From an uncultured virus (IMG/VR IMGVR_UViG_3300025701_000008) (lineage: Duplodnaviria; Heunggongvirae; Uroviricota; Caudoviricetes), in the IMG/VR virus record IMGVR_UViG_3300025701_000008: a stretch of DNA of 64,000 nt. One strand, given 5' to 3'. Numbering within the stretch: the stretch's first letter is position 1; each line of letters starts with the position of its first letter. The notes under the pieces are model-generated. The model searched no databases. It was not told the origin of the DNA and saw only the letters and a list, made by a program, of their open reading frames with translations. Of the stretch, positions 7,254 to 49,877 are shown in pieces. The translations under genes and the position numbers were made by a program.

Positions 7254-8069
7254 CTATTCCTTAATAAGTTCTTTTAAATATGGTGCTAAAGTTTTAGCGA
7301 TAATTTTGTTACCACCTACATTAGGGTGGCCACAGGGTGTTAAGTATTTATTAGTCTTTGTTTTTGAGCGCAATATATTCAAGTACTCAAATGGTGATGG
7401 TTTTGGTTCATCAAGTAACCATTGTCCACTACATATATCTAGCAAGGTGTTGTTCAGGGAGCGACTTTCTATCCAGTTATCATCCCCTTTAGAGTTTATC
7501 ATAGTCCAATCTCGACTACCTACCACAATATCTACCATACCCAAAGCACCCTTTTTTAGTTGACGCGCTTTGATACATTCAATATTATCTAACTTATCAA
7601 GATATGGTTGATAATCATAACTGTTTATCATTCTATACGGAATATCATACATTTCGCATAGTTGTTTTATTCCGAGATATGCTAATTCGGTATGTACACG
7701 TAAAGTTGCTATGTCGTGTGGGTTAGAATTCTCAGTATTTCTATGATTTATTTTACCCCGTAGAGCATTATCACTATTAGGATTATTGACATATTGGTTT
7801 CTTATAGTGTCCCTTTCCCACTGACTGTATACTATAAGAAACATAAATTCGGATAAGTCTTCCTTGGTCTTACCTCGCACAAAGGATAATACCTCACTCG
7901 CTATTGCGAGATTGGAACGTCCCTCTTGCCCCTTATTTATAACCTCAATTCCCAATTCCTCGGACAAATAATAAGGAAAGTTTAATTCGGTGACATTCGG
8001 GGTAGGACTTGCTCGATACCCCGACACAAAACTATCACCAAAGACTACTAACCTTCGCAAGCCCGACAT
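7254..8069 (-). CDS. SGNH/GDSL hydrolase-like protein inserted between nrdA and nrdB
   Basis: VFGDSF, NKGQEGRSN, C-terminal GHPN. Confidence 0.6.
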   Translation of the reverse strand: MSGLRRLVVFGDSFVSGYRASPTPNVTELNFPYYLSEELGIEVINKGQEGRSNLAIASEVLSFVRGKTKEDLSEFMFLIVYSQWERDTIRNQYVNNPNSDNALRGKINHRNTENSNPHDIATLRVHTELAYLGIKQLCEMYDIPYRMINSYDYQPYLDKLDNIECIKARQLKKGALGMVDIVVGSRDWTMINSKGDDNWIESRSLNNTLLDICSGQWLLDEPKPSPFEYLNILRSKTKTNKYLTPCGHPNVGGNKIIAKTLAPYLKELIKE

Positions 8070-10467: not shown

Positions 10468-10650
10468 CTATTTTATATTATCGGGAAGATATCTGCGTAG
10501 CACATTAACGGCGTCATCACGACGTTTTTTGCGGTCATGTTTTTTTCGCATAACTACTGTGCTGGAATCGTCTCCCGCACCTGCTACCGATGATGTGTTG
10601 TTGGCAATTTCTTCGTGGAAGGCTGCCATGAATTCTTTATACGTTTTCAT
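10468..10650 (-). CDS. Small probable capsid-internal protein
   Basis: N-terminus MKTYKEFM resembles the T4 capsid-targeting sequence MKTYQEFIAE; basic C-terminus. Confidence 0.55.
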   Translation of the reverse strand: MKTYKEFMAAFHEEIANNTSSVAGAGDDSSTVVMRKKHDRKKRRDDAVNVLRRYLPDNIK

Positions 10651-11237
10651 TATGAGTCTCTTTTTAGTAATACCATTTTACCTACACCTGTCCAACCATC
10701 TAACGATTCATACTCGTGTATACTACTTAGGGAGTACGGAAACCTGCTGCTGGTAATGTAGTGGTTGATAAGTTTAGTTAGTTCAGGGAACCAGATATAT
10801 TCATAGTCGTCTATGAGTATCCACTCAACTCCTGCTTGATTACATTTCTGTATATCTAAAGCAGCAGGCCCTTTACGATGGTCACCATCTACGAAGACCA
10901 TATCATACACCGACATGGCGTTTGTGTCAAGGTCTTTTGAATTTAATTTAGTAAAACTAAAACGTTCTGGAAACATATCAGATAGTTTACTTGCGCACAC
11001 TTCTGTATGAGGGTATTGGCATATGTCTATTGAATGGTATGTAACATCGTCAATTAAAGATAACACACCGAAACTACTGTGGCCCGCATTAAACCCTATT
11101 TCTAGAACCCTTTTAGCATTGGTCTTTTTATATATGGTTTTTATGGTCTCAATGGTGCGTTCAGAAAGAATTAATCTTCCTTCGGACGCACCCATTTCCG
11201 ATGTCAGTAGTCTATCGGATTGCTCTTCAAGAGTCAT
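10650..11237 (-). CDS. Class I SAM-dependent methyltransferase (Methyltransf_24-like)
   Basis: VLEIGFNAGHS, FVDGDH, LIDD. Confidence 0.8.
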   Translation of the reverse strand: MTLEEQSDRLLTSEMGASEGRLILSERTIETIKTIYKKTNAKRVLEIGFNAGHSSFGVLSLIDDVTYHSIDICQYPHTEVCASKLSDMFPERFSFTKLNSKDLDTNAMSVYDMVFVDGDHRKGPAALDIQKCNQAGVEWILIDDYEYIWFPELTKLINHYITSSRFPYSLSSIHEYESLDGWTGVGKMVLLKRDS

Positions 11238-11796
11238 TTTTCTTTAATAACGCAACAGGATTATCTCCATCGCGAGAATCATAGTGAAAAATGTCAACTA
11301 AATGATATCCAAATTCTGGTTTGGTTAGAAAGTGTGTGGTCAATTCAACTATTTGTGGAAACCAATCTTCTGAATAATCATCAATTAATATATATTCAAT
11401 TCCCGCGTCACTCGCAAGTCTCAAGTCAGATGTCAATCCACTAATACTGTGGTCGCCATCAATAAAGATGGTGTCATACTTTGTTACATTTTTCGCTGAC
11501 ATATTGCGAGAATTTGATATACGATAATCAAATCTTTCTTTAAATATCTCTTTAAGTTTATCAGCATTAATTTTAGTATACGCGTGCCGCCCTATATCGA
11601 TAGAATGATATGTAACTTCAGGTAATATATTCAACGTCATAAATGCGCTGTGGCCAGCATTAAACCCTATCTCTAATATACGAGTAGGTTGTATTATATC
11701 ATATATTTTGGTGAAAGTTTCGACGGTTCTGTCTGTAATAGACAAATGACCCTCAATATGTCCCACGATATCATTTACTAAGAAATCGGAGGTCAT
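11227..11796 (-). CDS. Class I SAM-dependent methyltransferase, tandem paralog
   Basis: ILEIGFNAGHS, FIDGDH, LIDD. Confidence 0.8.
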   Translation of the reverse strand: MTSDFLVNDIVGHIEGHLSITDRTVETFTKIYDIIQPTRILEIGFNAGHSAFMTLNILPEVTYHSIDIGRHAYTKINADKLKEIFKERFDYRISNSRNMSAKNVTKYDTIFIDGDHSISGLTSDLRLASDAGIEYILIDDYSEDWFPQIVELTTHFLTKPEFGYHLVDIFHYDSRDGDNPVALLKKNDS

Positions 11797-23083: not shown

Positions 23084-24433
23084 TTAACAGCCAGGATTAT
23101 TTTCTACGCACTGTCCACTAGGTAGAGCATCCGGCACATATCTCTGTAAATTATCATCGTATAGAGATTTCTCAATAAATGTTACCAATTGAGTAACTTC
23201 ATCGGGAGTCAAGTTTAGAGGTCTAAATCTATAATCCAGTCTATCTAAAGGCATATCCGCTTGAGCGACACCTGCGTTCTTATACTCCACAACTTCCCGC
23301 ACACTCGTAAACGATGAGCCATGACCCATAAACTTAGAATCTGTCAGATTGTATAGTGGTGGAATTTTGAATTGATAGGCGTCAAACTCGTCTTGAGTAA
23401 ACCCACCGCGACCTTTACGAACCGCATCGTTAATGGCATCTGCGTTTGTTATATTATCATTCACATCTAAGTCACTGAAACCGACCGCCATGAACATCTG
23501 TTCCTTAGTAGCATATTGCGGTGAACTAAGAGCAGGCCCTGAGTGACAACTGGAACATCCACCTTTATCACCAAAAAACACTTGAGCACCCTTTAGTTCA
23601 GTCTCAGATAACGCGTCCTCATCACCACGTAACCATTTCTGGAATGGTGCTTCATTGGACAAGATAGTACGTTCAAACGCGGCAATAGATTGTGCGGCAG
23701 TGGTAAGTAAGTCATCACCACCTATTTCCATAACAAGTTCTTGATATTCAGGTAATGTGTCAAGTGGGGAACCCTCACCAACATTCAGACGGTGTACACC
23801 CAGACCAGCGATTGCTTGTACTTCTAGTCCAGACCACTGTCGGGCATTATTCTCTTTAGGGGTACCTTCAGTGGATAGTACGGACTCATCAATACCTACA
23901 TTGACAATACCATCAACCGCATTACCAAACTGACCGTTCCATAACATAACCTCTTGATACGCGGTATTCATTACGGTAGGAGACGCGAGAGGTTGTAAGT
24001 CAGCGAGGGCACCTAATATATTAACACGGTTCGCACCATTACCAACACCACCTTCACCCACACCTTGAGCAATACCGGACTTGAATCCTGCGCTCGCATT
24101 GTGACAAGATGCGCAAGAAAATGTGTTCTTATGTTCTTCGGTAACACCAAGAGTCATAGCAGTTTCATGGAACAATAACTTACCCAATTTAACCTTTTCC
24201 TCGGTTATAGGATTCATTACGTCTTGGGGGATATTACTATAGTCGTCACTCATAGGAAGTACGAGGTCACTGACTATGATTAGGTCGCGCAGTTTTGCGC
24301 TCTCTATCTGTACGGGTGTTTGGGTGGGAGGATTTACAGTAGAAGGAACTTCAACTAAATTAGACGTTTCGGTACCTCCACCACAGGCGGATAGCAATAA
24401 AGATGTCACTGTCACTAACATTAATTTTTTCAT
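23084..24433 (-). CDS. Di-haem cytochrome c peroxidase/MauG-family lipoprotein
   Basis: Lipobox LLSAC, LGKLLF, CASCH and CSSCH haem motifs, IAAFERT, FKIPPLYN. Confidence 0.88.
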   Translation of the reverse strand: MKKLMLVTVTSLLLSACGGGTETSNLVEVPSTVNPPTQTPVQIESAKLRDLIIVSDLVLPMSDDYSNIPQDVMNPITEEKVKLGKLLFHETAMTLGVTEEHKNTFSCASCHNASAGFKSGIAQGVGEGGVGNGANRVNILGALADLQPLASPTVMNTAYQEVMLWNGQFGNAVDGIVNVGIDESVLSTEGTPKENNARQWSGLEVQAIAGLGVHRLNVGEGSPLDTLPEYQELVMEIGGDDLLTTAAQSIAAFERTILSNEAPFQKWLRGDEDALSETELKGAQVFFGDKGGCSSCHSGPALSSPQYATKEQMFMAVGFSDLDVNDNITNADAINDAVRKGRGGFTQDEFDAYQFKIPPLYNLTDSKFMGHGSSFTSVREVVEYKNAGVAQADMPLDRLDYRFRPLNLTPDEVTQLVTFIEKSLYDDNLQRYVPDALPSGQCVENNPGC

Positions 24434-32246: not shown

Positions 32247-33299
32247 TTAAACTGCCTCTTGTATTATTTCATCTAAATCAATAGGGCTATTATACCCTAT
32301 TTTATACGTCTTGGCAAGGAATTCTTTAAAATCAGTTGTTTCGAAAATAGGTTCCCAGAAGTCAGCACTTAGAGTTTCTTTTAATCTAAGTTTACCGTCC
32401 ATCACTTCACCAGTTTCTTTATCTACGCGCTGATACCAACCATTAGATGGTTTGATAACATAACCACCAGCGATAGCAACATCAAGTAATCCAGAGTATT
32501 TCTGAATACCACCGTCCCAAGTAACGCCGATAGGGATCTTAGATTTCTCTTTAACATAACGAGACTTCTCAACGTTAATTACAAAGTTATAACCTACAAT
32601 CTCTTGACCTTGTTTCTCTTGTTGACGACCAAGGATCCAAATGTTATCAGCTGAGTAATAGATACCAGTACCACCAGATACAACCGCTTTAGGGAATAAA
32701 CCAATCTCTTGATAAGTATGGTTAATCGCTAACATAGGAATGTTCTTCATAGCAAGGTACGGTGTAGACATACGGAATAAACCTTTCAATGCTTTCGCAC
32801 GAGACATATCCGCCACACCTTTCTCATTCAACGCATCGTCTAACTCTTTCTTAGAAGCCAAGTTACCGATAGAGTCAATAACGATAATAACATCATCATC
32901 TCGGTCTAGTTCTTCAAGTTGACTAATCAAGTCAAACTTTAAGTCTTCCACGTGTTTAATAGGTGTATGTAATACTCGAGAGGTATCAATACCAAACTGT
33001 TCGAAGTAAGATTGCGGAGAACCAAACTCTGAATCATAGAACAACATTACCGCATCAGGTTTGGCATTAAGATATGCGCCCGCCATTAATAGAGCAAATG
33101 AAGTCTTGAAGTGTTTAGATGGGCCCGCGAGGACAGTAAGTCCAGCAGTGACTCCACCATCAACAGAACCCGACAGAGCGACGTTCACCATAGGTACATC
33201 CGTCGGTACCATATCTTTACTATTAAAGAACTTACTAGTACTGAGAATATCCGTCTCTTTAATCTTCGAGTTCTTCTTCAGTTTATTCATTATACTCAT
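32247..33299 (-). CDS. uvsX: RecA-like recombinase UvsX
   Basis: AGPSKHFKT, YDSEFG, DSIGNLASKKE, DMSRAK. Confidence 0.95.
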   Translation of the reverse strand: MSIMNKLKKNSKIKETDILSTSKFFNSKDMVPTDVPMVNVALSGSVDGGVTAGLTVLAGPSKHFKTSFALLMAGAYLNAKPDAVMLFYDSEFGSPQSYFEQFGIDTSRVLHTPIKHVEDLKFDLISQLEELDRDDDVIIVIDSIGNLASKKELDDALNEKGVADMSRAKALKGLFRMSTPYLAMKNIPMLAINHTYQEIGLFPKAVVSGGTGIYYSADNIWILGRQQEKQGQEIVGYNFVINVEKSRYVKEKSKIPIGVTWDGGIQKYSGLLDVAIAGGYVIKPSNGWYQRVDKETGEVMDGKLRLKETLSADFWEPIFETTDFKEFLAKTYKIGYNSPIDLDEIIQEAV

Positions 33300-34219
33300 T
33301 ATTGTTTGCCTTCTCCAAAATTAGCGAATGTGATGTTGTTAACCTTTTCACGGTCATCAAGGTCATATTGTACCCGATAACGTGTGTTTATGTCAAGAAC
33401 TTTTTCAAGTAAATCAAAGGCAATAGTTTCGCCAGTATCTTCATTGGTTACTGTAGAGAAGTTCAACAGCGCATTTGTATCTTTAGGTAGACACGCACCA
33501 CCAAACCCACGTTTACCATCAAACCCAGGCACACGAGTATGACCCATACCTACACGCGGGTCTAGACCAGCTGCGCGAGTTACAATGTTATACGAACAAC
33601 CATACGAGTTTACCAAATCATACAACTGATTAAAGAATGTCACTTTTGTAGCAAGAAACGAATTAATAGTGTATTTAACAAATGACGCTTCGAACGCGGT
33701 CATACGATGATAGTCGTTAGACTCACAACCACTGAAGATATCATAGATTTCAATCAGTTCTTGAGTTGCCTGTGGAGAACCACCCATGACGTGGAACTTG
33801 GCAGTAACAAAGTCTGCCTTAGCGTTTTTCTCGGTTAAAAACTCTGGGTTATATGCGAATCGGTCTACTTGGCGTCTATCCATAGAGTTATAAAGACGTT
33901 CAATCACATCAGGGGTGACAGTCGACTTGATAACAACAATCGCATTAGTATGAACCAATGCCTTCAAAGTAGCATCTTCTACGATAGTGGAATCGACCGA
34001 ACCATTATCATGCGATGGTGTAGGTGCGCAAATAAACACACAGTGTGGGTCATAGTTGCTCAACTCATCGATAGACGTATTATATTTTGGGTCGATAAGT
34101 TTGAAATCAACCATAGGGTGAGTAAAAGCATACTCGACCGCCTGACCAACAAACCCGTGACCGACGATTGCCATACGAAAAGGATTCGCAGGACTTAGTG
34201 GAGCATTTTTATCTGACAT
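33299..34219 (-). CDS. UDP-glucose/GDP-mannose dehydrogenase (short form)
   Basis: GHGFVG, IKSTV, YNPEFL, KYTINSFLA, GFGGACLPKD. Confidence 0.88.
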   Translation of the reverse strand: MSDKNAPLSPANPFRMAIVGHGFVGQAVEYAFTHPMVDFKLIDPKYNTSIDELSNYDPHCVFICAPTPSHDNGSVDSTIVEDATLKALVHTNAIVVIKSTVTPDVIERLYNSMDRRQVDRFAYNPEFLTEKNAKADFVTAKFHVMGGSPQATQELIEIYDIFSGCESNDYHRMTAFEASFVKYTINSFLATKVTFFNQLYDLVNSYGCSYNIVTRAAGLDPRVGMGHTRVPGFDGKRGFGGACLPKDTNALLNFSTVTNEDTGETIAFDLLEKVLDINTRYRVQYDLDDREKVNNITFANFGEGKQ

Positions 34220-35166
34220 TATTTAATCCCATTATAAGTTTTGTACCATTCATAAAAACGTGTTATACCTTCAGCGATACTCACTTTTGGGCGATAACCC
34301 AATTGACTGAGTTTCTTGGTATTTGACCAAGTCTCCAAAGTATCTGCTGGATGTTTAGGTGCGAGGTCTTTCTTAGCCTTCTTACCTACATTCTTCTCGA
34401 TTTCATCGATGAAATCCATTAAAGCAACCTGTTGACCTCGACCAATATTAAAAATCTCACCAGATTTAATCTTGGTGTTATTCATAACAATTTCGATACC
34501 ATCCAAGATATCTTCAACAAAGGTAAAGTCTCGCTTCATGTCCCCATAATTATACACGGTAATCTCTTTCCCGTCAAGGATTTTATTCGTAAAGTCGAAT
34601 AACGCCATATCAGGACGACCCCACGGGCCATATACTGTGAAGAATCTTAGACCAACCGTGTTGAGTCCGGACGATTGGAACTGACACTCATTAGTCCATT
34701 TTGACCAACCGTATGGGTTTAATTGTTTACCAGTCTCTTGACCTTCAGTCCAAGGAACTTTTGACCCAGCATACACACAAGACGTTGACGCGTATATAAT
34801 ACGTGTGTCAGGTAAGTATTTTTTACACACATCAATAACATTCTGAGTCGCGTCAATGTTATTACGGTGATACTGTTTCTCTTTACCCATTGAGTCACGT
34901 ACACCCGCGTGAGCAGCGAGATGGATAATAATATCCGGTGCGAAGTCGCGCAATAGTGCTTCTGTTTTGATTTCGTCAGCGAGGTCACATCCCCAAATAT
35001 CCAGACCGAAATGTTTCATGCGGTCTACTTTTAGTTGGGGGTCATAGAGGTGGTTGTTGAAATTATCAATACCCTTAACTTCTATACCACGTTTCATTAA
35101 TCGCGCGGAAAGTTGAGAACCAATAAATCCTGCCGCTCCTGTAACTAGTACTTTTTTCATATTCAT
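34219..35166 (-). CDS. NAD-dependent epimerase (UDP-glucuronate 4-epimerase-like)
   Basis: TGAAGFIG, HLAAHAGVR, YGWSK, RFFTVYGPWGRPDMA. Confidence 0.88.
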   Translation of the reverse strand: MNMKKVLVTGAAGFIGSQLSARLMKRGIEVKGIDNFNNHLYDPQLKVDRMKHFGLDIWGCDLADEIKTEALLRDFAPDIIIHLAAHAGVRDSMGKEKQYHRNNIDATQNVIDVCKKYLPDTRIIYASTSCVYAGSKVPWTEGQETGKQLNPYGWSKWTNECQFQSSGLNTVGLRFFTVYGPWGRPDMALFDFTNKILDGKEITVYNYGDMKRDFTFVEDILDGIEIVMNNTKIKSGEIFNIGRGQQVALMDFIDEIEKNVGKKAKKDLAPKHPADTLETWSNTKKLSQLGYRPKVSIAEGITRFYEWYKTYNGIK

Positions 35167-36553: not shown

Positions 36554-39049
36554 TTATCCAAAGAAGTCCTCCAGTGACGACGGAGGTTCCGCGTCCCAAC
36601 CAACCGCATCAAGAATGGGAGTAAGTGGGTCTAGGAAACTTTTAGTAAACATCAGGTCATAATCGATATGAGTATGTAGACGCAACTCTTTTGGCATATT
36701 AAGTGGGTATGATATAACATTCTGACCCAAGTAATTAGGAACTTTCAGATAAACGAACTTAATCTTCTCGCCCGTCTGGACTTCCTGATACTTCTGTGTC
36801 AGGCCGTGAGTCTTCAATGCGGCATTGTAACACAACGCACCGCGCACATGAATCGGAGTACCTTTCTTGAAGATAGTCTTGCGGTCTACCCATTTGTTCA
36901 GGGCAGATATACCACGAGGGAATGAAATATCTTCGGGCGGTAAGGTTCTGAAATGGGACTTAAAGTCAGAAATGTACCGTTGTGTGTCCGATTCGGTACC
37001 TTCTACGATAACCCGAAAGATTTCCTTGAACTTGTCACGCACGACCGAAGGTGTCGAAGACTTGATTGCCTCGATACCCATCATCTTGAGTTTAGGTTCT
37101 GCGTATTGGACACCCTCGTTGTTATGTACATTCAGGATGTAACGTTTCTTAGCCATCCAGATACCACGGTCAGCGATAACCTCACGTCCCATCTCCATAC
37201 GATTACTATATGCGCCAGTAATCTTCGCCATCTCTGCGTAAGATGTTTCCAGAACTTTCTCAAAGTGTTCGGAACAAATCTTGTCTAGGAATTTAACAGG
37301 GTCTTTAGGAGCAAACTTATCAACCAAGGCACCCATACGAATATAAACAGAGTCGGTATCAATTGCCACAACGTAGTCTTCATCTGTTTTAAGGAGGTTT
37401 TGCATTTCATTGTTAACGGCTCTCTCTGCCCATTTGATTGCGAGTTGTCCCGCAATAGTAATTGATTCCGCAACACGCTGATCGAAATATCTGAAGTAGC
37501 GATTCCCAAGGGCCCCATAAAGTGAATTCATAAGAATCTTGATGGCGGCCTGTTTATTGTTCAGTGAGGTAATCTTATACTGGAGCGCCTTAGATGGATT
37601 ATGCTGATACTCTTGTTGAAGTTCCAACATCTCTTTCTTGACTACCCGACGTTCCGAATAGTATTGTTCGATGATTGAAGGAACAACACCTTTTCGGTCG
37701 TGCGAGAATCTAACACCAGTAGGCGCAATAGAATGACTGAGTGTAGAATAATCGAAGTCATCACCATACATAGTACCGTCTAGTATTTTATCCACAGACA
37801 TATTTGGAACAATACCATCCAACACCGTCTCGGGTGACATATTGTATTGAACAATGATGTTAGGATATAGAGAGTTCAAATCGAAAGAGGTTACCCATTC
37901 GTGCGAACCGACTTGAGGTTCTTTCACGTAACCACCCGCAAACGCGGACTTAGGTTTGTCGGTTTTAGGTGGAACGACAATCTGTTTCGCGTTCAGCATA
38001 CGATAGATGATGCTGTCCCAGATATTAGTAGTACCTAGGGTATCACCGTAGTTGGCGCCTGCCTTATATGCCATAGTCAGGATAAGAGAGATGAGGTCGA
38101 GTTTCTCGTCCAACGCATGAACGAGTTCAACATCCTTAATGTTATAGTCAATGAACTTCTGGTAATCTTCTTTGTAGAGATTAAACAGGGTGCCGTGTTC
38201 TTCGTAGTTGATTTTACGCTCACCAAGTTCGACAGTCGCGATGTGGTCGAGACGATACGATTCTTGTTGGGTATATGTGAACTTCTTGTAAACATCCAAG
38301 TAATCGAGATGCTCAATACCTTCAAGGATATATTCCTGAACCTTCTTACCAAAGTATTCCCGATTGCGCTCGCGGATGATACCCCAAGGTGATAGTTTAG
38401 ACAGTAGAGTCTCGTCACCAAATAGATTACGCGTACGGTTGATGATATACGGAATATCAAATCCCATAGTGTTCCAGCCAGTAATTACGTCGGGAGTATG
38501 GCGACTCCAGTGGTCAATAAACTTACGCAACAAATCCATCTCGTTATCGCATTTGATAAACAAGACATCTTTACGTGTGACCACATAGTCATTCAGACCC
38601 CACACCCAATAGATACCGTCGTTCTTGCGTAACGTAATAGAGATGACAGGATGTTCGGCCTTACTAGGTTCAGGGAATCCCGCGTCAGACGCAACCTCAA
38701 TATCGAAGTTAGTGACTTCCACCGAAGAACGGTCGAAGTCGATATCGGTCGGGAATTTTTTAGCGATGTACTGATACACCATGTTATTCATACCGTACAC
38801 ATTGACGTTAGAAACGTCACGATACAGTTTATCAAACTCGGTCGCCTCAGACATAGAGTCGAAAGTCACGGGCGCGACATTCTGACCGTCTAGGGTTTTC
38901 CAAGGTGAGGTTTTGTCACTATTGACAAATAGAGTGGGTTTAAACGCAATCTTTTTCTTGACGCGTTCGCCATTTTTGTATCCGCGATACAGCAAGTTAT
39001 TGCCGCGACGGACAACTGAGGTATAGAATTCTTTAGTATTTTTTATCAT
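36554..39049 (-). CDS. 43: Family B DNA polymerase gp43
   Basis: FDIEV, SFDLNSLYP, KILMNSLYGALGN, IDTDS, KKRY. Confidence 0.97.
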   Translation of the reverse strand: MIKNTKEFYTSVVRRGNNLLYRGYKNGERVKKKIAFKPTLFVNSDKTSPWKTLDGQNVAPVTFDSMSEATEFDKLYRDVSNVNVYGMNNMVYQYIAKKFPTDIDFDRSSVEVTNFDIEVASDAGFPEPSKAEHPVISITLRKNDGIYWVWGLNDYVVTRKDVLFIKCDNEMDLLRKFIDHWSRHTPDVITGWNTMGFDIPYIINRTRNLFGDETLLSKLSPWGIIRERNREYFGKKVQEYILEGIEHLDYLDVYKKFTYTQQESYRLDHIATVELGERKINYEEHGTLFNLYKEDYQKFIDYNIKDVELVHALDEKLDLISLILTMAYKAGANYGDTLGTTNIWDSIIYRMLNAKQIVVPPKTDKPKSAFAGGYVKEPQVGSHEWVTSFDLNSLYPNIIVQYNMSPETVLDGIVPNMSVDKILDGTMYGDDFDYSTLSHSIAPTGVRFSHDRKGVVPSIIEQYYSERRVVKKEMLELQQEYQHNPSKALQYKITSLNNKQAAIKILMNSLYGALGNRYFRYFDQRVAESITIAGQLAIKWAERAVNNEMQNLLKTDEDYVVAIDTDSVYIRMGALVDKFAPKDPVKFLDKICSEHFEKVLETSYAEMAKITGAYSNRMEMGREVIADRGIWMAKKRYILNVHNNEGVQYAEPKLKMMGIEAIKSSTPSVVRDKFKEIFRVIVEGTESDTQRYISDFKSHFRTLPPEDISFPRGISALNKWVDRKTIFKKGTPIHVRGALCYNAALKTHGLTQKYQEVQTGEKIKFVYLKVPNYLGQNVISYPLNMPKELRLHTHIDYDLMFTKSFLDPLTPILDAVGWDAEPPSSLEDFFG

Positions 39050-39055
39050 GTGGCC

Positions 39056-39084
39056 ATTATAGATTAATATGTACGTTATGTCAA
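39056..39084 (-). promoter_or_regulatory. sigma70-like promoter of g43
   Basis: TTGACA-17-TATAAT. Confidence 0.7.
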
Positions 39085-39087
39085 GAG

Positions 39088-39120
39088 AAAAAATCGGAAA
39101 GGATTAATATCACCTTCCCG
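39088..39120 (-). terminator. Terminator closing the C5-MTase/CmoA operon
   Basis: CGGGAAGG...CCTTTCCG followed by ATTTTTT. Confidence 0.6.
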
Positions 39121-39142
39121 TGACGTTTATAAAATAGTACTA

Positions 39143-39856
39143 TTACTTTAGGGCAATAGCACCCACAAATAGGTGGTTCATCCAGAACGGTTGAATCTTA
39201 GTCGAATCAAAACCAACTGAGGTCAGTAGACTGATAAGGTCATTCCAAGTCATCGGTTTCAACATAGTTCGGAGAGTCTTTTCTTTCTCCATAATATCTT
39301 CATAGGTAAAGTGCTGTGCCTTATACTCATAGAACGTGGAGGTCATCATGTCTTGAATACGTGAGTTCTCCGCATAGGTCTTCTCGGCAAAGATAAACGC
39401 ACCACCTTCGTTGAGACCATCATAGATGTTCTGTAGTACTTTCTTTCTCCATAAAGGTTGCATAAACTGTAACGTAAAGATAGATGTCACAAGGGAACAA
39501 TTCTCGAAGTTGTGGTGGATGATGTTTTTGTTTTGAAAACAGACGTGGTGACCATCTTCGTTAAGTCTTGTCTGTCGCTCAGTCATTTCGTTTTGAAATA
39601 CTGGAGCATACTCAACACCACAGTAATGTGCGTTAGGAGCAGTAGTATGATTCTGTTCAATCATTGCTTCGATAGTCTTACCTGTACTACATCCAATGTC
39701 AACAACCTTGGTGTCGTTCTCTACAAAGTAACGTGATAGGTTTACCACGTCATCATGGAGCGTGGAGTAGTGACGAATCGAAGCATCGATGTGATTATCG
39801 AAACCTTCTTCGCGGTGACCAAACGTAAAGTCTTTATACTTCTCTCTATCTTTCAT
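39143..39856 (-). CDS. cmoA: CmoA-like carboxy-S-adenosylmethionine synthase
   Basis: FDNHI..SI.HY, DIGCSTG, FTLQF, LNEGGAFIFAEK; follows the CmoA pattern DLGCSLG/FTLQF/GGALVLSEK. Confidence 0.75.
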   Translation of the reverse strand: MKDREKYKDFTFGHREEGFDNHIDASIRHYSTLHDDVVNLSRYFVENDTKVVDIGCSTGKTIEAMIEQNHTTAPNAHYCGVEYAPVFQNEMTERQTRLNEDGHHVCFQNKNIIHHNFENCSLVTSIFTLQFMQPLWRKKVLQNIYDGLNEGGAFIFAEKTYAENSRIQDMMTSTFYEYKAQHFTYEDIMEKEKTLRTMLKPMTWNDLISLLTSVGFDSTKIQPFWMNHLFVGAIALK

Positions 39857-40994
39857 TATACACCTTCAATACGTTCTCATAGACAGACTCAGCGACTGCT
39901 TTCATCATTAGTGGAGGAACCATACGACCAACACGTTCTGCCTTCTGGTTCCACTTACCCGTGAGTTTAAAATCATCAGGAAGTGACATTATACGCTTTA
40001 ATTCGCCTAGTGTCAACTTTCTCGATTCACTCCAGTGAAATGCGCCGGCAGTAGTGTCACCATTACCCATTGCGGTAAGAGTAGGGGCAGGGACTTCGAG
40101 AGATACACGTTTAAGGTTAAAATGGTGACCTTTAGGGTGATAATCCATACCGGTCAATACTTTCTTAGGAAAGGTCTCCATCTTAGAACCAGTCTGTTTC
40201 CAGTAGGCGGTTCTTTCAAACTTCTCGGTCAAATATTTTACTTCTTCCTCGTCATACTCCAGACCAACTAAAGCATCCTTGAGTGGTATCGCAGTTTTTG
40301 TTGGTTCTGGGAACAAGTGATTCATAGTTAAGATATTTAAACCGACAGCATCGGCAACATCTTGTCGCACGGCAATAAATATTACACGCGAACGAGTCTG
40401 CGAGACACCATAATAACGAGAGTCCATAACTTCAGAAACAACTTCATATCCAATGTTCTCAAACTCATTCAGGATACGGTTGTAATATTCTTTTGCCTCA
40501 CCAATAGTAAGACCTTTAACGTTCTCCGCAATAATAACCTTAGGCTGAATCTCGTTGGCGACACGCAAGAACTCAAAGAACAGGTCTTCGATATTTTCTA
40601 CAATTTTACCGTCAGAGTATTTTTTGGTCTGTCCCCACCCATCAGAATGTTTACCATCTGAAGAATGTGAAAGTTTACCAGCAACCGAAAAGGCAGAACA
40701 AGGAGGTGACCCATCGAGGATATCCAACTCACCTTTCTTGAGACCGACAAGGTCTAGAAAGTCTTGACCCGACAATTCTTTGATATCGTTGGGGATTATA
40801 GGTGTGGTAGGATAGTTATCTTTATATGTGTTACGTGCTTCTTCTACAAACTCGTTGATTGCGAGGATATCTCCACCAGCAAGACGATAACCAGTGGATG
40901 AACCGCCGCCACCTGCGAAGGTGGAGACGACATTAAATTTTTTCTTAGATGCCTCTAAATAAACATCTTCCAACATATATGGGGTGTAAGTCAT
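39846..40994 (-). CDS. DNA cytosine-C5 methyltransferase family, probable carboxymethyltransferase
   Basis: FAGGGG, GSPPC, ENV, QTRSR; motif X reads GRMVPP rather than GNAVP. Confidence 0.88.
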   Translation of the reverse strand: MTYTPYMLEDVYLEASKKKFNVVSTFAGGGGSSTGYRLAGGDILAINEFVEEARNTYKDNYPTTPIIPNDIKELSGQDFLDLVGLKKGELDILDGSPPCSAFSVAGKLSHSSDGKHSDGWGQTKKYSDGKIVENIEDLFFEFLRVANEIQPKVIIAENVKGLTIGEAKEYYNRILNEFENIGYEVVSEVMDSRYYGVSQTRSRVIFIAVRQDVADAVGLNILTMNHLFPEPTKTAIPLKDALVGLEYDEEEVKYLTEKFERTAYWKQTGSKMETFPKKVLTGMDYHPKGHHFNLKRVSLEVPAPTLTAMGNGDTTAGAFHWSESRKLTLGELKRIMSLPDDFKLTGKWNQKAERVGRMVPPLMMKAVAESVYENVLKVYNER

Positions 40995-41020
40995 AAATTA
41001 CCTCTATTAATATAACACGT

Positions 41021-41049
41021 AGTATAACACTATTTAGCGTGCCTGTCAA
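41021..41049 (-). promoter_or_regulatory. sigma70-like promoter of the C5-MTase/CmoA operon
   Basis: TTGACA-17-TATACT with TG. Confidence 0.65.
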
Positions 41050-41058
41050 GAGGATTTT

Positions 41059-41859
41059 TTAATCAATTACTTTAAAGAAATGATGACGTGTCCAAGGTTC
41101 ATTTTGATATCTGTCCGAATAACCGTGGTGGTCTTGCGTGACACAAAGTCGTTTTGAAATCACTTGAGTGGTAGGGTTAGGTATTCCAGTCCGGTGTCTG
41201 TCTGATTTATTAAAAGGTATTCCGATATCACGACCAACATATAGCGTATCACATTGATTCCAAGGATGTATGGCAGTATCATTTACCCCGTAGAAATCTA
41301 TATCAGGTTGTTCTAGATGACGTGTCGTGTATGTACGAAACAATCTTTGTAGCACACAGTAAGGCCCGCAATTGATAGGGAAGTTTTTTACAGTTAACAT
41401 ATAGTACGCCCAATGAGCAAAACTTTTATCCATAGAGTACATACCCATAAAAAGTCCTATATTCGCATACATAGTGTCCTTGGCAAAGTGTGTGGCCATC
41501 TTGAATGCGTCGAAGCGTTCTTCTATCATCCAAGTATCATGTTCAATAATCCAGAACTTCTCATCACTCTCTGCTTGCTGTCTCATCAATTCCCAATGAG
41601 AACACATACCCGCCTTTTCTGTAGGTGAATGGTCGTCCTTACCGTTACCTGAATTCAGGTCGACAGTCATCAAACTACGCGCCCAGTCATATTTGTCTAC
41701 ATGTTCTTGAAACGTATCAGACTCTGGAGTAATAGCATCAAATATTTCTATACCATCAATATATCCTTCGTCGATAGCACGTTGAAAAGAGTGTCGCGAT
41801 AGAGCAGCATACTCCTCCGACTTTTCATTACCTTTTATGACTATTTGTTTTACTTTCAT
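41059..41859 (-). CDS. GT25-like glycosyltransferase
   Basis: FDAI, EKAGMCSHWELM, IIEHD (compare GC..SH..W...LEDD). Confidence 0.6.
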   Translation of the reverse strand: MKVKQIVIKGNEKSEEYAALSRHSFQRAIDEGYIDGIEIFDAITPESDTFQEHVDKYDWARSLMTVDLNSGNGKDDHSPTEKAGMCSHWELMRQQAESDEKFWIIEHDTWMIEERFDAFKMATHFAKDTMYANIGLFMGMYSMDKSFAHWAYYMLTVKNFPINCGPYCVLQRLFRTYTTRHLEQPDIDFYGVNDTAIHPWNQCDTLYVGRDIGIPFNKSDRHRTGIPNPTTQVISKRLCVTQDHHGYSDRYQNEPWTRHHFFKVID

Positions 41860-42566
41860 ATTACCTGTATTCTATCCTGTGAGATGTGCCCATTATGGGT
41901 GCTTGGTACGTAACCGCGTTGAATATATTCCCAAGCTATACTATATCGATATCCGTTACTTTTGTTTTCATAACAACTATGAACCAAGTTGGGATGAAAG
42001 AATATGGCAAAACACTCTTCTAGTTCTATATCCAATATACCAGAGTGTGCGTCGTTAACGCTCATCCAGTTAAATATTCCATTATGACTTGATTTATGAT
42101 GACCATGATTTTCTAGGTGTGACCTTGGTATTACTCGGAGACAACCCCTTTCTTTAGTAGCACCTTGGACGAAAATGTCGCAACTTATTAACTTACTCGG
42201 ATCAGCTTTAATATAATGGTTATCTTGATGCCAACCCACCGAGAATCCAGTATAAGGTATCATCGGAAAGAACTTACTAATATACGTGTCTATTTCAGAT
42301 ATGTCAAGAAGTTCTTTAGCGATATCGACAAGTTTTCTATTCTGTCCAAGTCTCCGAAATATAGGATTAGACTTCATAGCACCATCTAGTTTACAGGGGT
42401 TATTGGGACTATTCATCACCCAACCATCACCGTTACTTAGTCGCTCCTCTCCTATATCCTTTAAGCGTCCACACTCAGCAATCAATTCAGCCTTAAACTC
42501 AAAATCAATCGGTTGACGTATAACGACATAACCTTCTGTGTTAAATTTACTTATATCGGTATTCAT
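41856..42566 (-). CDS. PhyH-family 2OG-Fe(II) dioxygenase
   Basis: EGYVVI, WHQD, GCLRVIPRSH, LVHSC..N...R. Confidence 0.85.
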   Translation of the reverse strand: MNTDISKFNTEGYVVIRQPIDFEFKAELIAECGRLKDIGEERLSNGDGWVMNSPNNPCKLDGAMKSNPIFRRLGQNRKLVDIAKELLDISEIDTYISKFFPMIPYTGFSVGWHQDNHYIKADPSKLISCDIFVQGATKERGCLRVIPRSHLENHGHHKSSHNGIFNWMSVNDAHSGILDIELEECFAIFFHPNLVHSCYENKSNGYRYSIAWEYIQRGYVPSTHNGHISQDRIQVI

Positions 42567-42580
42567 AACTGATATGCTCT

Positions 42581-42609
42581 ATTATAACCGAATTTATTGA
42601 ACTTGTCAA
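42581..42609 (-). promoter_or_regulatory. sigma70-like promoter
   Basis: TTGACA-17-TATAAT. Confidence 0.7.
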
Positions 42610-44126: not shown

Positions 44127-44666
44127 TTAGTAGTATTTCGACGGACAAGGGTCACCTTCAACTCCGAAGGAGAAAGAGACTCGTGATTCTCGTGGAAATA
44201 CTTGATGATGTGTACCTCGCGGGAGATACACATACATACCCGGCTCAAAGTCAAAAGGTTCGTTATTATTGATACCCTCAACCTTTAACCCGACAGTGCT
44301 GATTACCTGAACGAGAAAAACGTCCATAGAATCTTTATGCCATGGGTATGACCCACTCGCACGACCAAATCCACTAAACGCGATGTTAGTTATTTTATTG
44401 GCATGTAGAGTGAATACTTCTTGCATCTCTTCATAAATATTTTTAGCAAACTCTGGCGCACTGCCACGAGAATGGAATGAATTTAATCCGATACGCATTT
44501 TGTCTGAATTTCTATCATATAACTCATTTGGATGACTATCCATCATCTTCATGAATTCATTCCAATTGTAGGTAGACTCCATATCAAAAGGGAGTACACC
44601 TACAAAAGGAATTTTATTTTTTATATTGTCATCACGGTTTTCAAAAATATCATAATAATTGGACAT
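44127..44666 (-). CDS. Cupin/JmjC-like oxygenase
   Basis: WHKD..DVFLVQ, PGMYVYLPRGTHH, RVSFSF. Confidence 0.75.
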   Translation of the reverse strand: MSNYYDIFENRDDNIKNKIPFVGVLPFDMESTYNWNEFMKMMDSHPNELYDRNSDKMRIGLNSFHSRGSAPEFAKNIYEEMQEVFTLHANKITNIAFSGFGRASGSYPWHKDSMDVFLVQVISTVGLKVEGINNNEPFDFEPGMYVYLPRGTHHQVFPRESRVSFSFGVEGDPCPSKYY

Positions 44667-45083: not shown

Positions 45084-45468
45084 CCTTATATACCTTCTTT
45101 TTTATTATTGCGATTTCGTCCTGAGATAAAAGCGACATTATTTGTTTGGTTTTAGAATTGCTGTATGAAAAATATTCTTTCACTGCTTGAAAGTTATCAC
45201 TAGTAGATGACTTGTCCCACTTGGAAAAACGTTTCTTCTTTCGAATTATATTTATAAGAAAATCATTTTGCATTTTACTTTCAATGTGATGTAATCTGTT
45301 CATCTCATTGGCTATAATAACAGTATCTGGAAAATACGACAGAGAACGATTAATCATATAACTATTGTAGTATTTAGTATTATCACAGTTTTCATCTATA
45401 AGATTAATCTTACTATGGTTTATGCTATTTAAGAAATCAAAAGGTGATAATTTTTTAGATTTGGTCAT
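45070..45468 (-). CDS. 62: Clamp-loader small subunit gp62
   Basis: YMINRSLS..DT...ANEMN, RKKKRFSKW; synteny. Confidence 0.9.
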   Translation of the reverse strand: MTKSKKLSPFDFLNSINHSKINLIDENCDNTKYYNSYMINRSLSYFPDTVIIANEMNRLHHIESKMQNDFLINIIRKKKRFSKWDKSSTSDNFQAVKEYFSYSNSKTKQIMSLLSQDEIAIIKKKVYKGGRE

Positions 45469-46120
45469 CTATTTTACACCACCCATTTAAATAATCTTTT
45501 TTATATAGTTCTTTAATACGGTCGCGCTGAGTATCACTCAAAGCACTATTGTACATTTTCAATGTTGTCTTATTATCATGAATTTCCAATTCGTCGCCCG
45601 TAAAACCTAGATTACATGATTGGTTAATGAAGGGCAGTAACCTATCTAATTCATTGATATATACTACCATGTCATAGTCTTCGGGTTTACCCATGTACCA
45701 CGACTGAGTATAAAAATGATTATTCTTTACTTGGCCGGTTTCGATACTTGTTATTACCTCATCAATTTCATGGGAAAGTGTCGGGAGTTCATCTATTCTA
45801 CCCTGCCTAATATGACTGGCATGATTAGCAACTATGTATTCACACGCAGAAAGAAACCGGTCGATTGGGTCGCGTCGAACAGCAATTCGGTAACTATTTT
45901 TTCGAAAAGGTATATCGAACTGGTCACCGTGAGTGCGAACTTTTGTCAATCTATCAACTCGGCCGATATGAAAATCAACACCGCGATATAACCGCTGTAG
46001 TTCCTTTAGAGTAGACATACCATTCTTCGGGCAAAGTCTTACATCAATATTATTAGGAAAATAAAGTACATTGTCAGCAGGCGACATCTCATATAGTTTG
46101 GTACCGATATCATCTATCAT
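45455..46120 (-). CDS. Sulfotransferase family 2-like protein inserted between g44 and g62
   Basis: PKNGMST (5'-PSB) and RDPIDRFLS (3'-PB), HFYTQ. Confidence 0.7.
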   Translation of the reverse strand: MIDDIGTKLYEMSPADNVLYFPNNIDVRLCPKNGMSTLKELQRLYRGVDFHIGRVDRLTKVRTHGDQFDIPFRKNSYRIAVRRDPIDRFLSACEYIVANHASHIRQGRIDELPTLSHEIDEVITSIETGQVKNNHFYTQSWYMGKPEDYDMVVYINELDRLLPFINQSCNLGFTGDELEIHDNKTTLKMYNSALSDTQRDRIKELYKKDYLNGWCKIDDQI

Positions 46121-47142: not shown

Positions 47143-48231
47143 TTAATCAGTTAAGTCAAATAAATTTAAAGATTCCCATGGCCATATTGTGTAACCAAAA
47201 TGTCCCCATCTTGCGGTATCTTTTAAGTTTATGGAAAAGAGGTCGAAACGGTCAATGATTCCTTTAGGGGTCAGGTCAACAGTATCCAGAACCAATTTGA
47301 CAAGGTCTTCGCGCACTTGTCCGTCCGCATAGATGTATATACTAGTGGGTTCTTTCACACCAATAGCATAACTCAACTGAACGGTACAGTTACTCACACC
47401 AAAAGAATGAACAATATTCTTTGCGATGTAACGTGCCATATACGCGCCAGAACGGTCAACCTTGGTACAGTCTTTACCACTAAACGCACCACCACCGTGT
47501 GGACAGTACCCACCATAGGTGTCTACAATAATCTTTCGACCAGTAACACCAGCATCACCATCAGGCCCACCAATAATAAACTGACCCGTAGGATTAATTA
47601 AGAACTCAGTATTTTCATCAATCCAATCACTTAGAGGAATTGAAATAATTGCCTTAATGTTATCGCGTACGGTCTCGATATCTACGTATCTTGAGTGTTG
47701 CGCACTACAAACAATTTTAGACACACGTATAGGTTTACCTTCATCAGAATACTCAACAGAGACTTGCGCCTTGGCGTCAGGGCCATACTGTGTATATTTA
47801 ATTACAGTGTCTATTATCTTTTTACTGAGACTAATTGCGAGAGGCATATAGGTATCGGTCTCTGTACACGCATAACCAAACATTAGTCCTTGGTCACCCG
47901 CACCGAAGTCATCAGTACCTAGAGCGATGTCAGCGGATTGTCCGTGTAGTTCGTTGTAAACTTTTAAGTTTCTCCAATGGAAACCGTCTTGCTCGTAACC
48001 AATCTCACATACAACGTCTCTGACAATCTGTTCAATACGTTCCTTGTCAAACTTGTCACTTTTATATTCGCCAGCAAGGGTTACCATGTTGGTTGTTACG
48101 AGGGTTTCTACCGCAGCGCGGTGAGAGGGATTTTTGTCTATAAGGTAGGTTGCGACAGCATCAGATATGATGTCAGCAATTTTATCGGGGTGACCACTAC
48201 TAACGCTTTCACTAGTAAAAGTGTAACTCAT
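47143..48231 (-). CDS. metK: S-adenosylmethionine synthetase
   Basis: FTSESV..GHPDK, GAGDQG, TGRKIIVDTYGG, GGGAFSGKD..KVDRS. Confidence 0.95.
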   Translation of the reverse strand: MSYTFTSESVSSGHPDKIADIISDAVATYLIDKNPSHRAAVETLVTTNMVTLAGEYKSDKFDKERIEQIVRDVVCEIGYEQDGFHWRNLKVYNELHGQSADIALGTDDFGAGDQGLMFGYACTETDTYMPLAISLSKKIIDTVIKYTQYGPDAKAQVSVEYSDEGKPIRVSKIVCSAQHSRYVDIETVRDNIKAIISIPLSDWIDENTEFLINPTGQFIIGGPDGDAGVTGRKIIVDTYGGYCPHGGGAFSGKDCTKVDRSGAYMARYIAKNIVHSFGVSNCTVQLSYAIGVKEPTSIYIYADGQVREDLVKLVLDTVDLTPKGIIDRFDLFSINLKDTARWGHFGYTIWPWESLNLFDLTD

Positions 48232-48332: not shown

Positions 48333-48563
48333 TTACTTATTTAACTTACGCTTTTCTGAATAAGACCGTACTATATATATTCGTGTAAAAGCGACAACAG
48401 AGAACCAACAAGTGATTATGTTGGAAATCCAGAATGGGTCTGTTATCCCCCATCTTTCAACTATAACATATAGGAAAAATATGTTAAGGGGGTAATTAAT
48501 CATCGCCCCCGTTAACACATGTATAGATGTTTCCTTAGCTATATATGAGTTTAGTTTAAACAC
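48333..48563 (-). CDS. Small membrane protein
   Basis: Two TM segments, R.Y..R tail. Confidence 0.55.
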   Translation of the reverse strand: MFKLNSYIAKETSIHVLTGAMINYPLNIFFLYVIVERWGITDPFWISNIITCWFSVVAFTRIYIVRSYSEKRKLNK

Positions 48564-49101
48564 AATATGGGTCGGTAGGGTTTAACAAGATATCCATCGT
48601 ATTTTCAGGCGAAGACATAATATATGGGTCGATAGGACAATCATACATAATACCCTCTTCAGGACAAAATTGTACAATCTCCATATTATCAACTACCATA
48701 GAGTATCGCCAAGTACGATATCCGAACCCTAAGTTTCGCTTAGACACCATCATTCCAAGTACTTCAGCAAAGTCTCCATTACCGTCAGGTAACATCTTAA
48801 CATTCTTAATACCTAACTGTTGCGCCCATTGGTACATGGCGAACGCATCGTTAACAGAAGTACAGTATACTTCATCAATACCGGCATCAATAAAATCTTG
48901 ATACATACTCTCAAAACCGGGCAGTTGTTCGTTAGTACATGTCGGAGTAAATGCGCCTGGCAATCCAAAGATTACAACACGTTTACCACCAATCAAATCA
49001 GACGTAGTTTTACGAACCCATTTAAATGGATTATCTCCGCCTATAGACTCATCACGTTCTCGTAAATGAAACATCACATCTGGTAACATCATACCTTGCA
49101 T
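48556..49101 (-). CDS. Peroxiredoxin (Prx5/redoxin family)
   Basis: PGAFTPTC, SVNDAF, LPDGNG, RTWRYS. Confidence 0.92.
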   Translation of the reverse strand: MQGMMLPDVMFHLRERDESIGGDNPFKWVRKTTSDLIGGKRVVIFGLPGAFTPTCTNEQLPGFESMYQDFIDAGIDEVYCTSVNDAFAMYQWAQQLGIKNVKMLPDGNGDFAEVLGMMVSKRNLGFGYRTWRYSMVVDNMEIVQFCPEEGIMYDCPIDPYIMSSPENTMDILLNPTDPYCV

Positions 49102-49199: not shown

Positions 49200-49877
49200 T
49201 TAAATAAAATTAACTTCTGGAAAATTTTTATATGGCGGAGAAAACTTTACATTACGAGGAAGCATCCTAAACCATATATTAATAGCCCACTTTTCACCTT
49301 CTTCTACAGGAAGTGCGGTGTGTAAACTGTTATGAATTGGGCGACGGACATCAGTATCGGTATTATTAAATACTACCATTCGCCCACGTTGTGTGTGTAC
49401 GGTGATACCTAAATTTGGGAATTTTGTATTACCACCTTTAGGTACTTTATTCAGATAAACTAGAGCAGTTACCAGTCTCTGACCACCATACATACACGCC
49501 TTCTGGCCGCTAGTAGTTGACATTTCAAATGCGTCATGATGGGGGTTATACTTTCCACCCACATTATAATGTATTACTTGCATTTGTTCAGCGTTATTAA
49601 GAGGTATTCCAACATATCGAGAAATCCTTTCTCCAATTTCCTTAATAACATCATCATCATACTCTAACCAACTATGAGACGCGGAACGAATATCAGTATC
49701 AAGTCTAGATTTACCACCATCACCCAATACTGTAGCATCTATCATATTAGACTTCGCAAGATTTATAATATAATCTGCCTCATCTTGACTAATGATATCG
49801 TCTTTAACATGTATTAAAGGGTCAGACCACATAGTGATACCATCATCGTAAGACCCTTTAACATCTGTTATCTTCAT
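49200..49877 (-). CDS. Prolyl-4-hydroxylase-like 2OG-Fe(II) oxygenase
   Basis: PHHD, GGQRLVTALVYLN, GGNT.FP, LHTALPV..GEKW. Confidence 0.88.
   Translation of the reverse strand: MKITDVKGSYDDGITMWSDPLIHVKDDIISQDEADYIINLAKSNMIDATVLGDGGKSRLDTDIRSASHSWLEYDDDVIKEIGERISRYVGIPLNNAEQMQVIHYNVGGKYNPHHDAFEMSTTSGQKACMYGGQRLVTALVYLNKVPKGGNTKFPNLGITVHTQRGRMVVFNNTDTDVRRPIHNSLHTALPVEEGEKWAINIWFRMLPRNVKFSPPYKNFPEVNFI

Follow-up and report, generated by a model that had tools for sequence, protein, structure and literature searches.

A probable CmoX–CmoA cassette for DNA cytosine carboxymethylation, with the apparent scar of a lost ligase gene, in an uncultured T4-like phage

Introduction

What does a DNA cytosine C5-methyltransferase make when arginine stands in its motif X and the gene that follows resembles a synthase of carboxy-S-adenosylmethionine (carboxy-SAM)? 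The question is raised by a two-gene cassette, cmoX and cmoA, in a 64-kb stretch of DNA (the window in what follows) from an aquatic IMG/VR phage whose genome is likely longer than 140 kb. The original prediction, made from the sequence alone, was that this pair installs 5-carboxymethylcytosine (5cxmC) in phage DNA by way of carboxy-SAM, with the caveat that similar pairs might already have been reported. Both the prediction and its caveat are supported here: the two window proteins are close homologues of proven enzymes of Synechococcus phage S-B43, which supports the 5cxmC reading and at the same time makes it an already published mechanism. What is new at this locus is minor, namely the scar of a ligase deletion, a promoter embedded in cmoX, and a reversed gene order.

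The CmoA–CmoX–CmoY system of S-B43 and a structure of its CmoX (8YF3) were described in December 2025 (Yang et al., Nat Commun 2025; PMC12783734). According to that paper, the S-B43 CmoA (SpCmoA) converts S-adenosylmethionine (SAM) and prephenate to carboxy-SAM, the S-B43 CmoX (SpCmoX) moves the carboxymethyl group onto cytosine C5 at GC sites with R350 contacting the carboxylate of carboxy-SAM, and CmoY, an ATP-dependent amide ligase, then attaches glycine. Wild-type SpCmoX takes carboxy-SAM only and R350N is inactive with both cofactors, the modification confers resistance to HhaI, and in the virion analysis given there only the glycine amide was detected and no 5cxmC (PMC12783734). A census from IMG/VR, UniProtKB, and MGnify in the same paper counts 5,615 CmoX, 4,257 CmoA, and 2,251 ligases; the chemistry is thus established, and the present locus is one more instance beside thousands of phage CmoX genes. 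A literature search on CmoX returned no other relevant paper beside this one.

The transferase

The following features of the first gene are used below.

39846-40994, minus strand: cmoX, a DNA cytosine C5-carboxymethyltransferase homologue of 382 amino acids (PF00145 and PDB 8YF3 homology)
40698-40709, minus strand: codons of the SPPC catalytic motif, S96-C99, with Cys99 equivalent to SpCmoX Cys98 (motif position and DNA reading)
39924-39926, minus strand: CGT codon of Arg357 in motif X, GRMVPP, equivalent to SpCmoX R350 (DNA reading and 8YF3 alignment)

The description of this gene as a complete C5 DNA methylase holds, as the match to PF00145 (2.6e-54) spans positions 1-322 of the 324 in the profile and the protein carries FAGGGG at residue 26, SPPC at 96, ENV at 157, QTRSR at 199, and GRMVPP at 356, where the longer protein reading is ERVGRMVPP. 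A sequence search of solved structures returned SpCmoX itself (8YF3) with an E-value of 1.5e-152 and 511 bits over residues 4-377; 238 of the 382 residues are identical (64 per cent by tblastn), and the stretch ERVGRMVPPLMMKA is the same in both proteins. Identity to the S-B43 and S-CRM01 proteins lies at 62–64 per cent. The S96-C99 motif and Arg357 align with S95-C98 and R350 of SpCmoX, in agreement with the criteria of the published census.

These residues are shared well beyond S-B43. The comparison set comprised the best 80 of 214 IMG/VR loci encoding CmoX homologues, and motifs were counted over these loci together with the window, S-B43, and S-CRM01, with sequences covering the site in question as denominators. 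SPPC was found in all 83 sequences, and arginine occupies the Arg357 column in 81/81.

A precedent for the cofactor switch, on which the original prediction had drawn, exists in print: engineered M.MpeI N374K, named in the S-B43 paper, makes 5cxmC from carboxy-SAM at CpG (PMC12783734). The likeness is that a basic residue in place of the motif X asparagine redirects the enzyme to carboxy-SAM; the differences are that M.MpeI is an engineered bacterial enzyme with lysine rather than arginine and a CG target. By analogy with S-B43, the target of the window CmoX is probably GpC. The composition of the window (39.2 per cent GC, with 15.4 per cent of cytosines within GpC) is neutral on this point, GpC being mildly depleted at an observed/expected ratio of 0.79 and CpG standing at 1.06.

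The cofactor synthase

The second gene contributes three features.

39143-39856, minus strand: cmoA, a carboxy-SAM synthase homologue of 237 amino acids (TIGR00740, phrog_4752, 4GEK, and SpCmoA homology)
39269-39271, minus strand: codon of Arg196, the candidate carboxylate-binding arginine, four residues past the E. coli Arg199 column (alignment)
39281-39283, minus strand: codon of Glu192, at the E. coli Arg199 column (alignment)

Both genes lie on the minus strand and overlap by 11 bp, so that the two-gene arrangement, the overlap, and the position of the motif X arginine codon are all borne out by the open reading frames (ORFs) and the DNA itself. Homology to CmoA is evident from several sides: phrog_4752 matches at 2.2e-58, SpCmoA is 51 per cent identical (E 3e-66), the S-CRM01 protein 53 per cent, and E. 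coli CmoA (4GEK) 26 per cent (5e-18). Six of the 11 listed cofactor residues of E. coli CmoA are identical here (Y39, D62, G64, S66, I118, and F137), and at the other five (A70, D89, N90, D117, and N132) SpCmoA also departs from E. coli.

The association of the two genes is likewise not peculiar to the window, for cmoA follows cmoX in nearly all related loci, a CmoA homologue occurring in 72 of the 80. Two types of CmoA, ∼90–96 and 56–61 per cent identical to that of the window, stand behind CmoX proteins that are all ∼90 per cent identical. In one set of loci (L013–L017, L019, L024, and L074) CmoX is ∼90–92 per cent identical to the window protein, yet CmoA is just 56–58 per cent identical, which indicates that cmoA has been exchanged independently of its partner gene.

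Taken with the transferase evidence, these matches make it very probable that the cassette is a CmoX–CmoA system, in which CmoA would supply carboxy-SAM and CmoX would place the carboxymethyl group on cytosine C5, Arg357 holding the carboxylate. Several observations nevertheless pull the other way. The core activity is predicted here from the genes of an uncultured, metagenome-only phage, the measured chemistry being that of S-B43. The match to TIGR00740, which bore out the original call of a CmoA-like gene (1.2e-30), scores 107 bits where the curated cut-off is 193.3, and NF011995 gives 73.7 bits against a cut-off of 285, so both bacterial equivalog models score below threshold; the protein fits a phage CmoA clade better than the bacterial equivalog. 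The target-recognition region of CmoX (residues 209-324) is just 47 per cent identical to that of SpCmoX (54/116), and GpC specificity is therefore not assured. Finally, arginine is absent at the E. coli Arg199 column of CmoA, as had been suspected, and glutamate stands there instead.

The last point can be examined more closely. In E. coli CmoA, Arg199 forms a salt bridge with the cofactor carboxylate (Byrne et al. 2013, PMC3663124). In an alignment of the CmoA proteins of the window, S-B43, S-CRM01, and E. coli, R199 of E. coli falls on Glu192 and E203 on Arg196, and SpCmoA carries the same pair as E188 and R192. Each aligned difference from E. coli CmoA in the window protein, this exchange included, is in fact shared with SpCmoA, an active enzyme with a reported kcat of 2.33 per s against 0.23 per s for E. 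coli CmoA (PMC12783734). The swap thus appears to characterize an active clade of phage enzymes and to be no defect, and Arg196 may reach the same carboxylate from one helix turn later.

It is possible to set out the sequence of events that these assignments would imply. CmoA would combine SAM, the supply of which is plausibly boosted by a phage-encoded MetK, with host prephenate to give carboxy-SAM; CmoX would flip out a cytosine, attack C6 through Cys99, and pass the carboxymethyl group of carboxy-SAM onto C5, while Arg357 would hold the cofactor carboxylate at the site that asparagine occupies in ordinary C5 methyltransferases. The resulting 5-carboxymethylcytosine in phage DNA would block restriction enzymes. 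Expression would start from two sigma-70-like early promoters, the first ahead of cmoX and the other within its 3′ end, where it would serve cmoA separately. Because cmoY appears to be gone by a 2.6-kb deletion the carboxymethyl group would probably be uncapped in the virion.

It might be asked whether an ordinary SAM-dependent methylase that makes 5-methylcytosine would account for the same genes, the CmoA-like protein serving some other purpose such as modification of tRNA to uridine 5-oxyacetic acid (cmo5U) through a host CmoB, or depletion of SAM. Both proteins do match generic methyltransferase families, the CmoA score is below the equivalog cut-off, and SAM depletion is raised as a possible side effect in the Discussion of the S-B43 paper (PMC12783734). 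This alternative is nonetheless highly improbable given the unbroken arginine in motif X among relatives, the exclusive use of carboxy-SAM by SpCmoX with its identical motif X, and the company that CmoA keeps with cmoX across loci. The E. coli CmoA/CmoB pathway (CmoA structures 4GEK, 4IWN, and 1IM8) resembles the cassette in its CmoA and in the cofactor carboxy-SAM, but its acceptor is 5-hydroxyuridine (ho5U) of tRNA rather than DNA cytosine, and its CmoA has arginine where the window protein has Glu192. CmoB had been reported as absent from the window, and a Pfam scan of 71 window ORFs indeed gave no match to a CmoB-type family.

Promoters and transcription

Promoters were scored as matches out of 12 to the sigma-70-like hexamers TTGACA and TATAAT. 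Three bear on the cassette.

41021-41049, minus strand: cmoX promoter, sigma-70-like early, TTGACA-17-TATACT with TG before the -10 (11/12)
39988-40016, minus strand: embedded promoter, TTGACA-17-TATAAT, within cmoX codons 327-336 and 130 nt upstream of the cmoA ATG (12/12)
39056-39084, minus strand: promoter of the DNA polymerase gene, perfect, at the downstream edge of the cassette (12/12)

The promoter ahead of cmoX is where it was predicted. Of the 80 sequences (window and loci) with enough DNA ahead of cmoX, 43 have a promoter of 11–12/12 within the 150 nt before the gene. The block of 89 per cent identity common to the window and the related locus L008 begins exactly at the cmoX promoter.

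The embedded promoter is one of four perfect promoters between 36000 and 44500, all on the coding strand. Of the 81 sequences that cover the site, 46 have a full 12/12 match there, among them every one in which CmoX identity is at least 85.9 per cent; the score is just 6–7/12 in S-B43 and S-CRM01, where cmoA precedes cmoX. Its codons were compared among 32 distinct cmoX genes with at least 85 per cent protein identity and a mean DNA identity of 80.6 per cent. The hexamer codons L327 (TTG), T328 (ACA), R334 (CGT), and I335 (ATA) are invariant in all 32, as are K326 and the spacer codons E331, L332, and K333 of the same 11-codon stretch, against a background in which 23 of 260 codons (8.8 per cent) for invariant degenerate amino acids are themselves invariant.

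Such constancy points to selection on the DNA itself, and cmoA probably has its own early promoter. The pair would then be transcribed as two nested units and not as one simple operon, an arrangement which suggests that carboxy-SAM supply is regulated apart from the transferase. The original picture of a self-contained operon stands in one respect, the possession by cmoX of its own promoter, and not in two others, as a second perfect promoter lies inside cmoX and the predicted terminator coincides with the junction of a deletion.

Loss of the ligase gene

If carboxymethyl groups are capped with glycine in S-B43, does the window phage do the same? No CmoY was found within the 64-kb window by tblastn with SpCmoY. 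A profile built from seven CmoY proteins, from which the control locus L010 was left out, found nothing in the six-frame translation of the window (best E 0.18, against 1.5e-171 for the control), and the motif SGGxDS occurs in no frame of the window. What remains between cmoA and the polymerase gene is the following.

39081-39101, minus strand: cmoY 3′ remnant, codons LSDFFS plus stop, the stop overlapping the -35 of the DNA polymerase promoter
39088-39120, minus strand: hairpin and T-run after cmoA, with an 8-bp stem and a 10-nt loop (RNAfold)

The closest relatives of the window (L007–L012 and L033) have polymerase proteins 99 per cent and polymerase DNA 97.3 per cent identical to its own, and hold three additional genes between cmoA and the polymerase gene. 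These encode a 296-amino-acid protein with no family match, a 286-amino-acid paralogue of the window's 279-amino-acid protein that resembles glycosyltransferase family 8 (GT8), and a 289-amino-acid CmoY (Asn_synthase, 5.8e-17). By blastn against L008, window positions 41049-39121 align at 89 per cent and 39102-36556 at 97.3 per cent, homology restarting at 39102, while positions 7875-10490 of L008 (2.6 kb, comprising the three genes) have no counterpart in the window.

The tail of the missing ligase is still legible at this junction. Read in a single frame, the DNA here gives ILSDFFS-stop, with the last six codons as in the CmoY of L008, and LSDFFS is identical to the CmoY C-terminus of L007–L012 and L033. 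In distant relatives CmoY ends in DLSEFMS, DLSEFLS, DLSDFIT, or NLSEFMS, its stop each time overlapping the TTGACA of the next promoter, and the pattern among these other relatives is D/N-L-S-D/E-F-x-S/T-stop. Since divergent ligases conserve this tail as coding sequence, the copy in the window is best taken as a remnant. Two IMG/VR contigs, each from a different sample, share this junction, and that speaks against an error of assembly. The nearest record to the window, G001 (a 38.9-kb IMG/VR fragment, ∼20 per cent complete), is 100 per cent identical across the cmoX–cmoA unit and has no CmoY in that fragment; when the 1,962-bp unit was compared with the phage collection by megablast nothing matched, homologues surfacing at the protein level. 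By this comparison of sequences, the lineage has lost a three-gene block including cmoY through a 2.6-kb deletion.

Between the tail of cmoA and the cmoY stub lie 18 nt of filler (39120-39103) for which no source was found in the related loci with up to four mismatches allowed, the best match having three mismatches and lying at an unrelated place. The filler forms part of the predicted terminator, which is borne out in part. An 8-bp stem followed by a T-run is present; its 3′ arm and T-run are remnant cmoY codons and its 5′ arm lies within the filler. With a loop of 10 nt, the hairpin is missed by the terminator scan. The minimum free energy fold of 39080-39130 (51 nt, the stem plus four outer pairs) is −11.4 kcal/mol with a z of −1.77, and 8 of 200 shuffles fold as well, so that it would be a weak terminator, a point that counts against the main reading of the locus.

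The lost block (L008 7895-9642) also held the 296-amino-acid protein and the 286-amino-acid GT8-like gene, and it is conceivable that this glycosyltransferase-like gene, beside the ligase in L008, might act on the hypermodified base.

Is the carboxymethyl group left uncapped?

With no cmoY in 64 kb beyond a stub, the end product in this phage is likely to be bare 5-carboxymethylcytosine, a conclusion that is favoured on balance but held with much less assurance than the identity of the cassette. Telling against it are the extent of what has been seen, 64 kb of a larger genome in which a ligase or tailoring enzyme could lie elsewhere, and the detection of amide only in S-B43 virions. If true, uncapped 5cxmC as the final virion base would be the first such base shown for a natural phage, S-B43 virions having held the amide. 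Phages with 97 per cent identical polymerase DNA that differ by the ligase block would then form a natural comparison of capped and uncapped carboxymethylcytosine, one that bears on restriction escape, on recognition by modification-dependent nucleases, and on transcription.

The alternative that survives best is that 5cxmC is made and is not the final base, being modified further by an enzyme encoded outside the 64 kb or by a neighbour such as a PhyH dioxygenase. This is possible, though distinctly less likely than the bare product. Besides the S-B43 virions and the partial genome, the distribution of the ligase lends it weight: in 44 of the 80 related loci the retrieved flanks include CmoY, which lies upstream of cmoX in 29 and downstream in 15. 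Another 23 lack it in short flanks. Set against this, the stub records the loss of the ligase at its usual site, 13 of the 80 loci have no CmoY despite at least 4 kb on both sides, and the complete genome of S-CRM01, which has cmoA–cmoX, gives no Asn_synthase match where S-B43 gives one. Ligase-less cmoX–cmoA pairs are therefore not rare among related loci.

The neighbour in question comprises two features.

41856-42566, minus strand: PhyH-type Fe(II)/2-oxoglutarate dioxygenase (PF05721, 5.7e-21)
42581-42609, minus strand: promoter of the PhyH gene itself, perfect

This gene is inserted between a GT8-like and a glycosyltransferase family 25-like (GT25-like) gene, two genes upstream of the cassette, and is not present in the closest relatives L007–L012. 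PhyH homologues were found only in loci without CmoY (seven loci and the window), an observation in favour of further modification. Tailoring of 5cxmC by alpha-carbon hydroxylation or oxidative decarboxylation would yield a cytosine derivative undescribed in DNA, a proposal which is very unlikely to be right. The PhyH-bearing loci stand for just two lineages that have a single gene order in common, and oxygenase-type matches occur twice more in the window, at 49200-49877 (2OG-Fe(II) oxygenase) and at 44127-44666 (partial JmjC-type cupin), so that adjacency is weak evidence.

That the cassette is instead a functionless remnant decaying after the cmoY deletion, as the scar and the accidental origin of the hairpin might suggest, is barely credible when both ORFs and both promoters are intact, all catalytic motifs are kept, the same variant recurs in two further contigs, and pairs without a ligase are found in other lineages and in cultured S-CRM01.

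Relation to known phage systems

The reading of the locus as a CmoX–CmoA system that probably ends in bare 5cxmC can now be placed beside its nearest relatives. S-B43 is also a T4-like phage and shares with the window the same two enzymes, SPPC, the carboxylate-binding arginine, and the Glu/Arg arrangement of CmoA. There, however, the order is cmoA–cmoY–cmoX, whereas the window has cmoX and then the overlapping cmoA, lacks cmoY save its last six codons, has an embedded cmoA promoter, differs through much of the target-recognition region, and probably belongs to a phage of a host other than a cyanobacterium. S-CRM01 (HQ615693) resembles the window in having the pair without an Asn_synthase-type ligase, in a region of replication genes ∼2 kb from the DNA polymerase gene; its CmoX and CmoA, 62 and 53 per cent identical to those of the window, are annotated merely as methyltransferases. 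It differs in having cmoA before cmoX and in lacking the embedded promoter (7/12 at that position).

Neighbouring genes and mosaic structure

Identity between the window and L008 changes by block, from 78 per cent upstream of hsp20 to 73 per cent in the gene for a 266-amino-acid protein, 89 per cent in the cassette, and 97 per cent in the polymerase gene. The breaks fall at promoters, and the position of cmoY varies among loci. This mosaic resembles the promoter/terminator-mediated shuffling of modules in T4-like phages, though as a likeness only. Shuffling of promoter/terminator-type modules in T4-like phages was reportedly described by Arbiol and colleagues in 2010. The PeSLs of T4-like phages are motifs in which terminator and promoter are combined (Comeau et al. 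2014, PMC4122927), and the boundaries of blocks in the window and its relatives similarly sit at junctions of a hairpin and an early promoter. In six loci (L018, L020, L021, L038, L043, and L079) the -35 TTGACA of the polymerase promoter lies in the loop of a GGGGG/CCCCC hairpin that is followed by T's, and this composite upstream of the polymerase gene is reminiscent of PeSLs.

The 266- and 279-amino-acid genes upstream were considered as parts of the cassette and are treated here as neighbours, their family leads being weak and the place of the former independent of cmoX. The 266-amino-acid protein has no match in Pfam, NCBIfam, or PHROG, its lead being a protein-atlas cluster of glycosyltransferase family 25 (score 0.97, with the family on 28 per cent of members), and relatives of the 279-amino-acid protein match glycosyltransferase family 8 weakly (E 0.0026, below cut-off). 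Even in loci with cmoX at another site, such as L030 and L031, the 266-amino-acid gene is still found next to hsp20 or the polymerase gene.

Phage setting and other cargo

The window encodes gp23, gp20, gp43, UvsX, UvsW, UvsY, RegA, the clamp, the clamp loader, and ribonucleotide reductase, and is thus from a T4-like phage. The nearest capsid proteins are those of Phage C48C1 (73.8 per cent) and Methylophilales phage Melnitz (61.6 per cent), followed by Pelagibacter phage HTVC008M (59.5 per cent) and cyanophages (∼57 per cent); as the nearest are not cyanophages, the host is probably not a cyanobacterium. Two genes of this setting had figured in the original prediction, which correctly placed the cassette beside gene 43 and metK ∼6 kb away.

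36554-39049: family B DNA polymerase (Pfam)
47143-48231, minus strand: metK, S-adenosylmethionine synthetase, a probable and accessory source of SAM (three S-AdoMet synthetase domains, 9.5e-52 to 9.5e-31)

Other methyltransferase genes are present. One of N6/N4 type at 2993-3757 (minus strand; PF01555, 1e-32) adjoins a DUF932 protein (3757-4704), and from this second DNA methyltransferase the phage may carry further DNA modification. Two tandem Methyltransf_24 paralogues of 195 and 189 amino acids lie at 10650-11796 (minus strand), and in L027 and L038 a Methyltransf_24 gene directly follows cmoA.

Among the replication genes are UDP-glucose dehydrogenase-like, NAD epimerase/dehydratase, and sulfotransferase-like genes (33299-35166 and 45455-46120, minus strand), and these sugar-nucleotide genes together with the GT8-like and GT25-like genes suggest a glycan-modifying set. 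The large subunit of ribonucleotide reductase (8048-10048, minus strand) has a C-terminal glutaredoxin domain (PF00462, residues 580-636), and a peroxiredoxin is encoded at 48556-49101. A di-haem cytochrome c peroxidase homologue of 449 amino acids at 23084-24433 (minus strand; PF03150, 4.4e-21) is unusual cargo for a phage.

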